Shown here piece by piece: positions 2,683 to 11,537 of a DNA stretch of 20,319 nt. Position 1 is the stretch's first letter. Every line of letters begins with the position of its first letter. The position numbers and the translations under genes are program-made. This stretch comes from a virus. Taxonomy: Duplodnaviria > Heunggongvirae > Uroviricota > Caudoviricetes. The notes under the pieces were generated by a model. That model was not told where the DNA came from. It made no database searches and was given only the letters and a program-made list of their open reading frames with translations. The stretch lies in the IMG/VR virus record IMGVR_UViG_2651869781_000004; one strand, written 5' to 3'.

Positions 2683-3105
2683 ATGGCAAAAGTATTTACA
2701 CAAGAAGAGCGGGAAAAAATTAAAGGGCAGGTTGTTGAGCTAGTACGCCGGAGTGGGCGCGAGACGTTACGGCAACTGGAAGCCAAGACAGGTGCGACAA
2801 GATATCTGATGAGTGTTCTCGCCAGAGAGCTGGTTGCCAGTGGCGATGTATACAACTCTGGTTACGGGTTATTCCCGTCTGAACAGGCGCGTAAGGACTG
2901 GCAAAACGCCCGCAAAAAACTCTCAAGGGCAAATCTGAAGAAACCATCTGTGGTTGATCCTGACCTTATCTGGCCATTACCAGACGGAGAAATACGCCGC
3001 TACGACAGGCGTCAAAACATAATCTGTAGCGAGTGCCGGAAGAGCGAAGCTATGCAGCGTGTACTGGCTTTCTATCAGGGTAATTTTCAGAAGGTGCTGT
3101 TGTGA
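2683..3105 (+). CDS. Hypothetical protein
   Basis: ORF-track frame 2668..3105; ATG at 2683 preceded by GGAGG (6-nt spacing). 140 aa, basic, with CxxC near the C-terminus (CSECRK). Confidence 0.5.
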   Translation: MAKVFTQEEREKIKGQVVELVRRSGRETLRQLEAKTGATRYLMSVLARELVASGDVYNSGYGLFPSEQARKDWQNARKKLSRANLKKPSVVDPDLIWPLPDGEIRRYDRRQNIICSECRKSEAMQRVLAFYQGNFQKVLL

Positions 3106-3144
3106 GCCAAATTAACAATCGGAACTTCGTGAAGAGAAAGCATA

Positions 3145-3202
3145 ATCCAAATCTGAATAATTAAGTTCAGCACTGTAAATAAAATTTAATCCTTAACTGG
3201 AG
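3145..3202. repeat. About 58-bp gene-junction element, copy 1 (aatccaaatctgaataattaagttcagcactgtaaataaaatttaatccttaactggagg)
   Basis: About 85% identical to a second copy at 4411-4468. Both end in GGAGG; copy 2 begins in the last codons and stop of the upstream gene. Confidence 0.6.
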
Positions 3203-3210
3203 GTATATCT

Positions 3211-3423
3211 ATGTCAAATACACAGAAAATTATTAACACTGAAAAATATAACGAGTGGGTGAAAAAATTCTCTGAGCAGATTTTTAAAATTACTGGCGAC
3301 GAGAATGTGGCAAAAAATGAATTGGAACCGTGGACACCTGAAGGAAACGCACCAAATTATTGCTGGTGGGAGGTTGATCCGGTTGATGCTGCAAATGAAG
3401 CCATGAGTTACCACAACGATTAA
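3211..3423 (+). CDS. Hypothetical small protein (70 aa)
   Basis: ORF with the GGAGG of the junction repeat 8 nt upstream. AT-rich codon usage, moron-like. No family recognised. Confidence 0.45.
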   Translation: MSNTQKIINTEKYNEWVKKFSEQIFKITGDENVAKNELEPWTPEGNAPNYCWWEVDPVDAANEAMSYHND

Positions 3424-3428
3424 TGTCG

Positions 3429-3451
3429 GGAGGCCGCCCGAAAGGGCGGTA
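3429..3451 (+). promoter_or_regulatory. SD-embedded GAAA-tetraloop hairpin (ggaggccgcccgaaagggcggta), copy 1
   Basis: Stem GCCGCCC / GGGCGGT closing a GAAA loop. The GGAGG overlaps the 5' base of the stem and the next ATG (3456) lies 5 nt after the stem. Identical 23-mer at 4493-4515. Confidence 0.5.
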
Positions 3452-3455
3452 AGAA

Positions 3456-3674
3456 ATGACTACATTATTCAGAAAAGAATATCCGCAAAAAAGTAGGGCG
3501 ACAGAATTTTTGTTTCTCATTCTGTTTATCGTATTGATGATACCGATATCCCCTCTAATTTTTGTCTGGGCAATCGGGAAAATAATTGAGCCAGTTACTG
3601 AATTGTATAACGACGTGGTATGGGCGTCATTCAACACACTGCACAATAAAATTAATCCGTATAAGGAAAACTGA
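3456..3674 (+). CDS. Small hydrophobic (membrane) protein, 72 aa
   Basis: ORF immediately after the hairpin. Central hydrophobic stretch FLFLILFIVLMIPISPLIFVWAIG consistent with one or two transmembrane helices. Confidence 0.4.
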   Translation: MTTLFRKEYPQKSRATEFLFLILFIVLMIPISPLIFVWAIGKIIEPVTELYNDVVWASFNTLHNKINPYKEN

Positions 3675-3675
3675 T

Positions 3676-3939
3676 ATGGCAACTTTGACAAAAAAAGAAC
3701 GGGCATGGTTGAACGAATTACAGGAAGTTCTTGATCGCTGTCCATCACCGAAAAAAATTGGCTTTTACACCATTGGCGATAAAAGCATTTACCTGTATGA
3801 CCTACGCCGCATGGATGAAATCATGGAGGCTCTTGATAATCGTTCGTCGATGGATTGGTGTGTTGCTGTTCATGATATGAATGCAGGGTTTGATGAAAAG
3901 ATTTTGTTCCCCTCATCAGTTGAAAGCACTGCGGGTTAA
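3676..3939 (+). CDS. Hypothetical protein (87 aa)
   Basis: In frame with ORF-track 3586..3939. ATG at 3676 is preceded by AAGGA and sits 1 nt after the stop of the previous gene, consistent with translational coupling. Confidence 0.45.
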   Translation: MATLTKKERAWLNELQEVLDRCPSPKKIGFYTIGDKSIYLYDLRRMDEIMEALDNRSSMDWCVAVHDMNAGFDEKILFPSSVESTAG

Positions 3940-3949
3940 GGAGTAACAC

Positions 3950-4093
3950 ATGACCACTATTACCAAAGAACGTATTGAATTGTTCATTAAATTTTCAGGA
4001 GGCGGTACTGTGAGTGAAATTAGCTATCAGGCTTCAATTACCGCTGGCATTCGCATCAAAGGAGAGGAGCATGGAAATAAAACCAGAGGATGA
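3950..4093 (+). CDS. Possible small ORF (47 aa)
   Basis: ATG at 3950 with AAGGAG 6 nt upstream; ends TGA 4091-4093, overlapping the next gene's start. Below the ORF-track size cut-off; read by eye. Confidence 0.25.
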   Translation: MTTITKERIELFIKFSGGGTVSEISYQASITAGIRIKGEEHGNKTRG

Positions 4094-4427
4094 GTTAAGC
4101 AATATCGTTTTATTTCCGGTAAAAGAGGATGACCCTCGTAATCAGGTTAATTTTCTTTATGAGCCATCGGAAAGACCATATTGTCATCACGCCTCTGTCC
4201 GGGTTGACGAAAAAGAGCGTCAGGTCCGCTGTAAAATCTGCGGTGCAGTTGTGGAACCATTTGACTGGATGCTCTCTGTGGCGAAAAGAGAAACCAGACT
4301 GGCAGATGATGTAAGGCTCTTGCGTCAGGAGGAGCGGGAAAGGCGAAAAAATATAGAAAAGCTAATTCAGATTGAGCGTAACGCGAAAGCGCGGATACGC
4401 AGGGCGACAAAATCCAGAACTGAATAA
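4071..4427 (+). CDS. Hypothetical protein with a possible zinc-ribbon (CHH...CKIC) and basic coiled C-terminus
   Basis: ORF-track frame 4014..4427; ATG at 4071 preceded by AGGAGAGGAG. Cys/His cluster YCHHASVRVDEKERQVRCKICG; C-terminal RQEERERRKNIEKLIQIERNAKARIRR. Confidence 0.5.
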   Translation: MEIKPEDELSNIVLFPVKEDDPRNQVNFLYEPSERPYCHHASVRVDEKERQVRCKICGAVVEPFDWMLSVAKRETRLADDVRLLRQEERERRKNIEKLIQIERNAKARIRRATKSRTE

Positions 4428-4468
4428 TTAAATTTAGCTCTGTTAAAAATTTAATCCTTAACCGGAGG
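4411..4468. repeat. About 58-bp gene-junction element, copy 2
   Basis: aatccagaactgaataattaaatttagctctgttaaaaatttaatccttaaccggagg; aligns with 3145-3202. Confidence 0.6.
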
Positions 4469-4492
4469 GATTTCTGCACCCTCAGAACATCA

Positions 4493-4515
4493 GGAGGCCG
4501 CCCGAAAGGGCGGTA
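4493..4515 (+). promoter_or_regulatory. SD-embedded GAAA-tetraloop hairpin, copy 2 (identical 23-mer)
   Basis: ggaggccgcccgaaagggcggta is identical to 3429-3451. The next ATG (4521) is 6 nt after the stem. Confidence 0.5.
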
Positions 4516-4520
4516 GTTAA

Positions 4521-4703
4521 ATGCGAAAGTTTAAAATAATTATTGAAACGGGAATAGCCGGTGGAGATTTCGAGGATGAATTCGAAGTGGATGATGATGC
4601 GACGCCTGATGAAATACATGACGAAGCAAAAGATATTTTCTTTAACTACTGCAATTACTCATATCACGAAATAAAAGACGAAGAGGAAGAACAAAATGGC
4701 TGA
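4521..4703 (+). CDS. Highly acidic small protein (60 aa)
   Basis: ORF after hairpin copy 2. Very D/E-rich (GDFEDEFEVDDDATPDEIHDE...KDEEEEQNG). Confidence 0.4.
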   Translation: MRKFKIIIETGIAGGDFEDEFEVDDDATPDEIHDEAKDIFFNYCNYSYHEIKDEEEEQNG

Positions 4704-5617: not shown

Positions 5618-5689
5618 GACTGCGGGTGCTTGAGGCTATCTGTCTCAGGCATGAACACCAAAAGGCAGATAGAGAAAAGCCCCAGTTAA

Positions 5690-5780
5690 CATTACGCGTC
5701 CTGCAAGACGCTTAACATTAATCTGAGGCCATATCTATGCGACACATAGAGATTAGCCTCTTACGGACCGAAAGGTCAAG
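5690..5780 (-). ncRNA. Candidate Sok-like antisense RNA region (approximate)
   Basis: Expected by analogy with hok/sok loci. Minus strand has TTGACC (complement of 5774-5779) and a GCGTC-N6-GACGC hairpin at 5696-5711. The -10 is weak and boundaries are not determined. Confidence 0.2.
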
Positions 5781-5796
5781 GAGAAGCAGGCTATGA
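5737..5796 (+). CDS. Short leader ORF (19 codons) ending on the hok start codon; mok-like coupling ORF
   Basis: ATG 5737 with TGAGG 9 nt upstream; its TGA stop (5794-5796) overlaps the hok ATG (5793-5795). Shorter than a typical mok. Confidence 0.3.
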   Translation: MRHIEISLLRTERSRRSRL

Positions 5797-10040: not shown

Positions 10041-10116
10041 GGCCCTTTAGCTCAGTGGTGAGAGCGAGCGACTCATAATCGCCAGGTCGCTGGTTCAAAT
10101 CCAGCAAGGGCCACCA
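10041..10116 (+). tRNA. ileZ: tRNA-Ile2 (anticodon CAU, lysidine type), ileZ-like
   Basis: 76 nt with CCA end. 7-bp acceptor stem GGCCCTT/AAGGGCC, D-arm GCTC...GAGC, anticodon loop CTCATAA, T-loop GGTTCAAATCC. Closely resembles E. coli ileX. Confidence 0.85.
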
Positions 10117-10213: not shown

Positions 10214-10290
10214 GCGTTGTTAGCTCAGCCGGACAGAGCAATTGCCTTCTAAGCAATCGGTCACTGGTTCGAATCCAGTACAACGCGCCA
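10214..10290 (+). tRNA. argO: tRNA-Arg (anticodon UCU), argO-like
   Basis: 77 nt with CCA. Acceptor GCGTTGT/ACAACGC, anticodon loop CTTCTAA (UCU), T-loop GGTTCGAATCC. Confidence 0.85.
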
Positions 10291-10754: not shown

Positions 10755-11146
10755 ATACATATCTGGATTATCACCTGTTACGGTAAAAAGTGATTGCTTA
10801 CTGTTTTTGTGAATGGCATTGCAGCAGCCGGATAATGTCAGTGCTGGCTGACGGTGTGCTGGTGGCGGGTGTGGTGGTTGTTGCTTTCCCGTTGCTGAAA
10901 AAGAAAACGCCAGACTGTTAGCCGGGTATCAGTTAGCGGGAGAAATTTTTAAATACTTCACAATTCAGGCGGTTGACTGTTGTCTGGTTTGCGGGGAGTT
11001 TGTTAAAAGAAACTGGCATGGTGAATCCCCCTGTGCGGAGGGGCAATCAGCGAGTAGGTATATGGGATAATCGCGGATTCAGGTGCTGGTACTGAATTCA
11101 CCGGGAGGCACCCGGCACCATGCAATGGCACATAGCGCCACTCTCC

Positions 11147-11172
11147 AGCCCCTCTCCGGAGGGGCTGTTTAT
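11147..11172 (+). terminator. Putative intrinsic terminator (agcccctc-tccg-gaggggct followed by a T-rich tract)
   Basis: 8-bp GC-rich stem with tetraloop followed by GTTTAT. Lies between the two convergent cargo ORFs. Confidence 0.4.
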
Positions 11173-11201
11173 ATTGATTTTGTCAGATGTGAGTAAACTC
11201 C

Positions 11202-11537
11202 TTATGGACTTTGTTGTTTTAGTCCATAAGGACATATTTGCAGAGTGCAACGGTTATTAAAGCATTCATTCAATACGTTATCTGTATTTGTAGGGCATTC
11301 CTGGCTGTTTTTGATTAAATTCCAGAATGTTTTATTGAATGGTACTACGTTGTAAATGGTTACAGGTAGCACTTTGTTATTGAGCATGATGCCTGTGTGA
11401 GTCAGTGTAAATATACTTTCAGGAGGTAAGAAAGCATCCGATTGATACCAGATTATTAATTTTATTTTACTCCATATGACTGAAAAAGATATTCCGCATG
11501 ATGGCTGGATAACTGTATCAATCACAATCCACTTCAT
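11202..11537 (-). CDS. Hypothetical protein (111 aa) in the stx-equivalent slot, opposite strand
   Basis: Minus-strand ORF with a strong SD (AAGGAAAG 5 nt before the ATG). Six Cys residues, several in the C-terminal third ([24 protein letters not shown]). A perfect 10-bp inverted repeat (11201-11210 / 11221-11230) overlaps its stop. No family recognised. Confidence 0.45.

Follow-up and report, generated by a model that had tools for sequence, protein, structure and literature searches.

To our knowledge, split ribosome-binding sites have been described for just a handful of genes, namely genes 38 and 25 of phage T4 and the Escherichia coli genes thrS and rpmE. A separate body of work on the lambdoid phages has described their mosaicism, in which module boundary ('linker') sequences lie at gene boundaries and are flanked by interchangeable genes. 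In T4 gene 38, the Shine-Dalgarno sequence (SD) and the AUG are 22 nt apart in the linear mRNA and 5 nt apart once the intervening structure is folded (PMC3014915), and in T4 gene 25 the distance is shortened by folding from 27 nt to 11 nt (PMC3014915; PMC7297116), with mutations that destabilise the intervening structure lowering translation initiation (PMC3014915; PMC7297116). A repeated initiation motif is known from the cluster K mycobacteriophages, the start-associated sequence (SAS), a short, conserved and asymmetric repeat with an SD core. Its copies all point the same way, are found 3–7 bp ahead of non-structural genes that are unrelated to one another, and are shared from phage to phage even though the genes behind them differ (PMC3203893).

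The window analysed here, i.e. the whole 20,319-nt stretch of DNA of IMG/VR record IMGVR_UViG_2651869781_000004, is an E. coli prophage of the lambdoid group and Rac/Stx type. The region matches, at 100% identity, a prophage beside potC in E. coli FDAARGOS_1059, a Rac/Qin-like lambdoid prophage with dicB, ydfC, cI/cro, ydaT, replication genes, RusA, holin and terminase. A 23-nt element, GGAGGCCGCCCGAAAGGGCGGTA (hereafter the 23-mer), occurs on its + strand at 3429-3451 (copy 1) and 4493-4515 (copy 2), both exact, as the first-pass annotation had reported, and no further match with up to 3 mismatches was found in the whole window; 100 dinucleotide-preserving shuffles yielded zero matches even at ≤3 mismatches, and the number expected by chance is 0. 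The exact repeat is limited to these 23 nt, and the flanks of copies 1 and 2 differ both upstream (..TGTCG and ..CATCA, respectively) and downstream (AGAA and GTTAA). Both copies lie in the rightward early operon, past the replication genes and amid very small ORFs of unknown function that are all encoded on the + strand, with neighbouring genes having ordinary SDs 5–8 nt from their starts. The Stx2a phage ArgO145 carries the same genes and both elements, but in the leftward early operon.

Fold prediction on the 23-mer gave a single hairpin, ....(((((((....)))))))., with a free energy of −15.5 kcal/mol and 96% of the ensemble, alone or in context, in which six G-C pairs and a terminal G.U form a 7-bp stem closed by a GAAA loop. 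This bears out the hairpin that the first-pass annotation had placed behind GGAGG, with the amendment that the last G of GGAGG is already the first base of the stem, paired with U22. In copy 1, the SD GGAGG occupies 3429-3433, the stem is formed by 3433-3439 with 3444-3450, the GAAA loop lies at 3440-3443 and the final A at 3451; the corresponding parts of copy 2 are 4493-4497, 4497-4503 with 4508-4514, 4504-4507 and 4515. The element had no match in Rfam at the gathering threshold, and at E ≤ 5 none was obtained in 3100-4600, one chance snoRNA match being placed elsewhere; nor did promoter and terminator scans return anything at the element. A literature search for the 23-mer sequence retrieved no paper, that on split or noncontiguous ribosome-binding sites and structured SD-start spacers retrieved no description of this element, and that on lambdoid boundary stem-loops retrieved just a preprint on the unrelated Pas sRNA.

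Each copy is closely followed by a gene on the + strand. Copy 1 precedes a DUF4014 gene (phrog_1832, 72 aa, 3456-3674) and copy 2 a DUF7167 gene (phrog_1997, 60 aa, 4521-4703), both with full-length Pfam (1-72 of 72 for DUF4014) and PHROG matches. The starts at 3456 and 4521 cannot be placed further upstream because an in-frame TAA just precedes each ATG (3450-3452 and 4518-4520, respectively), and with both starts so fixed the distance of 5–6 nt from stem to ATG given in the first-pass annotation was reproduced, ATG 3456 lying 5 nt past the last stem base 3450 and ATG 4521 lying 6 nt past 4514. Measured along the linear sequence, the SD-AUG distances come to 22 nt in copy 1 and 23 nt in copy 2, i.e. 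in both copies the SD is more than about 15 nt from the start; measured across the folded stem they are 5 and 6 nt, with the hairpin lying wholly between SD and start and restoring a spacing of about 5–11 nt. No other free SD at normal spacing precedes 3456 or 4521, the spacers being AAGAA and AGTTAA, respectively, and the sole other SD-like stretch is GGGCGGU, the 3′ arm of the stem; the predicted anti-SD pairing of this arm (AAGGGCGGUA, −8.1 kcal/mol) is close to that of GGAGG (−8.7 kcal/mol), but the arm is locked in the −15.5 kcal/mol stem. The dN/dS values were 0.24 for DUF4014 (hairpin-preceded copies) and 0.08 for DUF7167, indicating purifying selection and therefore that both proteins are made, and the two genes are probably translated from the initiation regions of copy 1 and copy 2, respectively, as judged from the sequences.

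The same arrangement was found widely among relatives. The search of other prophages for the 23-mer ahead of start codons, which the first-pass annotation had proposed, returned the exact sequence in more than 120 IMG/VR contigs, and in ~230 of 234 related copies (about 98%) the next start codon lies 5–8 nt past the stem without an intervening SD. Across the relatives, at least 7 genes without relation to one another follow the hairpin, the families being DUF7167, three diverged DUF4014 types, Ea22-like, MQ(E/D)IKE, MAELTKEW and MGITKERLL, and the start at 5–8 nt is found before at least 6 unrelated genes without an SD of their own; the hairpin is always on the same strand as its gene, whether in early-left or early-right operons. 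Since DUF4014 and Ea22-like homologs elsewhere carry ordinary SDs (aaaggagagtgatATG, ataaggaaaactgaaATG) in place of the hairpin cassette, the cassette appears to stand in for an SD. The hairpin can also occur without the split arrangement, because the MGITKERLL gene has its own GGAG past the hairpin in its four loci. A survey of 2.1 Mb of related prophage DNA revealed no second hairpin family in an SD-hairpin-start arrangement.

Of 5426 complete E. coli genomes, 2372 (about 44%) contain the 68-nt segment around copy 2 (4453-4520, 23-mer included), which is found at about 3150 places in all and at up to 7 in a single genome, with 1–2 copies of the element per prophage. Only 19 of 50,697 deposited phage genomes hold this segment, among them Rac, Rac-SA53, mEp460 and ArgO145-like Stx2a phages; the element is absent from the Rac prophage of E. 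coli K-12. DUF4014 itself is hardly found outside Escherichia, Shigella and Salmonella, and a scan of species-representative genomes for its distant relatives returned 2 loci only, so that deep covariation is out of reach.

With moderate confidence, we read the 23-mer as a portable split (noncontiguous) translation-initiation region with the geometry of T4 gene 38, which would serve as a recombination joint as well. On the early-operon mRNA the stem-loop would essentially always be folded, and folding would bring the unpaired GGAG(G) on the 5′ side of the stem to a distance of about 5–8 nt, across the helix base, from the next AUG, so the 30S subunit could pair with the SD and reach the AUG despite a linear separation of 22–23 nt that would otherwise be insufficient for initiation. 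The cassette may have originated as the 3′ flank of the module of a 70-aa gene and would now be serving at least 6 unrelated, SD-less small accessory genes. The first-pass claim that SD and ATG are at functional spacing only in the folded state is favoured by the geometry, the distribution, the substitution bias described below and the purifying selection on the downstream genes, but that folding stimulates initiation is a step we infer from these; the hairpin would then promote, and not merely tolerate, initiation.

The 70-aa gene (phrog_4659, 3211-3423, +) is the constant left partner of the hairpin, copy 1 beginning 5 nt past its TAA stop (3421-3423). In a sample anchored on the 70-aa protein alone (81 copies in 80 loci), TAATG(T/C)C(R) and then the hairpin element come after the gene in 81 of 81 copies, with the stem intact in 79 and badly decayed in 2. 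Upstream of the gene lies a linker on the + strand (3153-3210, CTGAATAATTAA..AAATTTAATCCTTAACTGGAGG), comprising the intergenic region and the ordinary SD of the 70-aa gene, and this linker is about 85% identical to 4418-4475; its sub-motifs CTGAATAATTAA and AAATTTAATCCTTAACTGGAGG each occur exactly twice in the window, against an expectation of 0. Alignment to 3150-3250 delimited a second linker copy on the + strand together with a scar of the missing 70-aa ORF (4420-4492), which joins the 23-mer to give a 93-nt conserved intergenic module (U1). As the 5′ half of U1 matches the linker of the 70-aa gene (about 85%), U1 is the same module minus the 70-aa ORF, and to the left of its linker at least 5 unrelated upstream genes occur. 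What the first-pass annotation had overlooked is that the element forms one end of this larger, duplicated unit and is also a joint of mosaic recombination. The comparison of copies suggests one ancestral arrangement behind all of them, i.e. linker, SD, 70-aa gene, SD and hairpin, and because of this shared origin the positional regularity is in part inheritance rather than repeated independent selection. The linker, which is AT-rich, also contains a boxA-like and likewise AT-rich GCTCTGTTAAAAA.

[quoted passage not shown] The high stability of the hairpin, the AU-rich single-stranded stretches beside it, the four loci where the next gene has its own SD and the use of identical hairpins as 3′-end structures (terminators) in unrelated phages are all compatible with such a role. 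It leaves unexplained, however, the unvarying GGAG set directly against the stem, the 5–8 nt distance to the start and the six SD-less gene families, and the ORF-less module U1 keeps the hairpin though no module ORF lies upstream to be protected, and we thus regard a primary stability function as unlikely.

A stable structure within a ribosome-binding site is usually inhibitory, and the hairpin might instead be a negative or regulatory element that holds translation down or makes it conditional, whether by taking up the ribosome-binding site or through an SD-sequestering fold of copy 2. The predicted consensus fold of the 65-nt copy-2 module does pair an upstream UCCU with the AGGA of the SD, enclosing a GAGGG:CCCUC helix, which would lower, not raise, initiation, and the SD-like 3′ arm is locked in the stem. 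The upstream helices of this fold have no covariation support, however, and copy 1 has no upstream pairing partners; the SD and the AUG both lie outside the hairpin, a layout that is stimulatory in T4 genes 38 and 25, and −15.5 kcal/mol is far too stable for a thermometer or switch. An RNA thermometer was rejected on the same ground, the energy being that given by the six G-C pairs, and we consider a repressive role to have a rather low probability.

Besides initiation, the cassette appears to mark a joint of the mosaic. BLAST matches in other phages and in E. coli genomes stop in many records at query base 63 (4515 of the window), the last base of the 23-mer, and both left contexts (the 70-aa gene and U1) combine with several right-hand genes. 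ArgO145 is the reciprocal of the window, in that its 70-aa gene is followed by hairpin and DUF7167 and its U1 by hairpin and DUF4014. In the window the two direct repeats are 1064 bp apart, and the product predicted from a deletion between them, 70-aa gene-hairpin-DUF7167, was found in L079 and ArgO145. Because the neighbours vary, the similarity ends at base 23 and both reciprocal and deletion joins exist, the element can be regarded as a mosaic joint, all the more so as the cassette is conserved while both of its neighbours vary, and lambdoid phages probably exchange and delete genes by recombination at these 23 bp, as far as can be read from the sequences. We further raise, as a tentative and somewhat doubtful extension, that the 23-mer is an expression adaptor for any promoterless, SD-less ORF landing 5–8 nt behind the stem, which would couple gene shuffling with expression; since 23 bp is near the minimum length for homologous recombination, genes could be swapped, deleted and captured without loss of translation.

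The joint could also be nothing else, i.e. a boundary stretch spread by phage recombination that has no RNA function and in which the hairpin is a historical accident. The similarity breaks exactly at the end of the 23-mer, the freely recombining left and right partners, the reciprocal and deletion products and the single origin of all copies would all fit such a neutral stretch, and a covariation count on 24 haplotypes was no better than shuffles and not significant, because the copies are too similar. A neutral stretch, though, would leave the downstream genes, which show purifying selection, without an SD that they could use, and it should diverge like third codon positions. In an unbiased sample anchored on the DUF7167 coding sequence (n = 61), third codon positions had a mean pairwise p-distance of 0.11, and only the 5′ arm (0.12) and the loop (0.11) reached this level, with 0.028 in the 3′ arm and 0.000 in GGAG. 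The 5′-arm changes are chiefly C-to-U at positions 7, 9, 10 and 11 and G5-to-A, which keep G.U or A-U pairing, and their mirror image, G-to-A changes of the 3′ arm that would break pairs, is rare. This strand asymmetry is as a + strand RNA helix would predict, unlike a DNA palindrome or a minus-strand RNA, although the conservation of the 3′ arm may have a second cause because AAGGGCGGUA is itself SD-like.

Among the 234 copies, all 7 pairs are kept in 93%, with one compensatory event, in which G8A is accompanied by C19U (G-C to A-U) in 7 loci, the same lineage also containing the A.C intermediate; uncompensated mismatches occur in some lineages as well (A8.C19; C11A with G17A; G8A with G20A). 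GGAG never varies where the downstream gene needs the element, and GGAGG has decayed to GGATG in 6 copies that are followed by an ORF remnant of 7 codons, as well as in one copy (L250) whose next gene has its own GGAG, a restriction that a neutral stretch would not impose. Given these patterns, we hold it quite improbable that the 23-mer is without RNA function. The loop varies among GAAA, GGCA, UAAA and AAAA; it is thus not sequence-constrained, which argues against a loop-reading protein. The 70-aa protein was considered as an RNA-binding regulator of the hairpin and rejected, being strongly acidic (6 K, 0 R, 14 D/E).

Two roles that the first-pass annotation had raised for the element, intrinsic termination for the upstream gene and processing by RNase III, are hardly credible, since the GC-rich hairpin directly past the stop codon in copy 1 and the recurrence of the same 18-nt hairpin with T runs in unrelated phage contigs are outweighed by the lack of a T/U tract past the stem on either strand (the next bases are AAGAAAUG or AGUUAAAUG), by the negative terminator scan and by same-operon genes that continue 5–6 nt later, and since RNase III needs roughly two helical turns, a stem of about 20 bp or more, for which 7 bp is far too short. 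Because the same hairpin occurs with T runs in unrelated phages, the 18-nt hairpin itself is generic, and what is specific here is the GGAG before it and the start codon behind it.

Three further identities were rejected. Translational coupling, in which a terminating ribosome melts the stem, is disfavoured by geometry, the distance from stop codon to stem being 10 nt in copy 1 and 70 nt in copy 2. The lambda nut site consists of boxA and boxB, a 5-bp stem with a conserved GNRA-like pentaloop that is recognised by N, and lies after an early promoter; the element has a variable tetraloop, and its position is fixed relative to start codons. Integron attC sites are imperfect palindromes of 57–141 bp with extrahelical bases and a GTTRRRY core, which are used by the integron integrase; the hairpin here is 18 nt and perfect, and GTTAAAT is found only past copy 2, being absent past copy 1 and the other variants.

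If confirmed, the 23-mer would be a natural, multi-copy and widespread split ribosome-binding site, its module occurring in about 44% of the complete genomes of E. coli, and would drive several prophage accessory genes that are unrelated to one another, some of them in Shiga-toxin phages. It would also provide an annotation rule for starts seemingly without an SD, a compact structured ribosome-binding site for synthetic biology, and a concrete case of a functional RNA element fixing the exact position of a mosaic joint. Were the hairpin neutral or inhibitory, the finding would shrink to an ordinary conserved boundary sequence. As a natural case the element is clean, widespread and open to testing, though not a new principle.

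Of the described systems, T4 genes 38 and 25 share with the 23-mer the canonical SD, the stable hairpin and the AUG, as well as an overlong linear spacing that is shortened by folding. They are, however, single orthologous genes of lytic T-even phages that have no sequence relation to the 23-mer, whereas the latter is repeated within a genome, precedes at least 6 unrelated genes and resides at the mosaic joints of temperate lambdoid prophages; function has been demonstrated for the T4 genes and is predicted for the 23-mer. With the mycobacteriophage SAS it has in common a repeated SD motif in one orientation before the starts of unrelated non-structural genes, at least 7 families in the present case, but the SAS is a 13-bp repeat with no hairpin between SD and start and about 10–20 copies per genome in phages of another host phylum, and the 23-mer has an 18-nt stem-loop core and 1–2 copies per prophage, with as many as 7 in one genome. 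In the E. coli genes thrS and rpmE, too, a hairpin within the ribosome-binding region is tolerated, with functional elements on both sides; these hairpins are operators bound by the genes' own protein products for feedback control, and the 23-mer gives no sign of a binding protein, its loop being free to vary (GAAA, GGCA, UAAA). Like the lambdoid linkers, finally, it is a short conserved boundary stretch with interchangeable flanking genes and sharp similarity breaks, from which it differs in its evident RNA-level anatomy, an SD plus a hairpin, and in the constant spacing that separates it from the start codon behind it.

The hairpin element with its Shine-Dalgarno (SD) sequence is not kept in the same form at all related loci compared with the window. 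A deletion, its size put at ∼14 nt by sequence comparison, joins CCCTCAG straight to GCCCGAAAGGGCGGTA at two of them (L180 and L185), so that the GGAGG is lost together with some of the hairpin's 5′ arm in front of a still intact DUF7167 gene; this deletion offers a natural test case of whether the SD is needed for DUF7167. The joint, i.e. the point where the 3′-end of the hairpin meets the exchangeable downstream gene, has the variant form GGCGGT/GGAGATAATAATG at five loci (L139, L148, L153, L177 and L250), and the MGITKERLL.. gene behind it retains its own SD immediately 3′ of the hairpin; in L250, the GGAGG upstream of the hairpin is changed to GGATG as well. The copy at L170 (minus strand, offset 8577) has an AAAA loop and GGCT instead of GGTA, and no ORF follows it on that strand; perhaps this copy lies at a block end and is decaying.

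For the module holding the second copy of the element, a consensus fold was predicted at window positions 4453-4497, in which pairing of UCCU (4456-4459) with the SD's AGGA surrounds a helix of GAGGG (4465-4469) with CCCUC (4479-4483), so that two SD-like and two anti-SD-like tracts are present. In the variant GGAGTG..CACTCTC of the related locus L052, a 5-bp helix forms again with its register shifted. The predicted 4453-4497 fold has no support from covariation. A second repeat family in the window is the AT-rich linker CTGAATAATTAA..AAATTTAATCCTTAACYGGAGG (3153-3204 and 4420-4468), whose 5′-end lies at the final codons of the preceding gene, whichever one it is, and whose 3′-end is an ordinary SD. 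In other phages, at least five unrelated genes precede the linker, every one with the terminus ..CTGAATAA.

Upstream of the second copy lies a 118-aa gene (phrog_1621, 4071-4427), of which the start overlaps the 47-aa ORF before it and the product gave a weak, sub-threshold match to a TFIIB-type zinc-ribbon. Rfam matches elsewhere in the prophage comprise the sok antitoxin RNA (5624-5795, with hokD nearby), two tRNA genes (10041-10113 and 10214-10287) and the sRNA STnc100 (10987-11176). Colinearity with the prophage copy of the reference strain (L001) breaks off, with 8816 of 20,319 bases agreeing at a fixed offset, and an IS66-family element (IS679) is annotated at 18533-21121 of L001, slightly downstream of the studied region.

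Outside this prophage, positions 11351-11413 of PP818812.1 (Actinobacillus phage vB_Apl-pPE4) form a segment with 100% identity to the E. coli prophage module. The recorded host of this phage is Actinobacillus pleuropneumoniae, and Escherichia is the source of every other match; it may be worth re-checking how the host was assigned or the genome assembled. The identical 18-nt hairpin GCCGCCCGAAAGGGCGGT also occurs in unrelated environmental phage contigs (L229, L233, L236, L246, L257 and others), where T runs follow it directly on the 3′ side. In those contigs it has the look of a common intrinsic terminator, and its likeness to the prophage element presumably reflects convergence.
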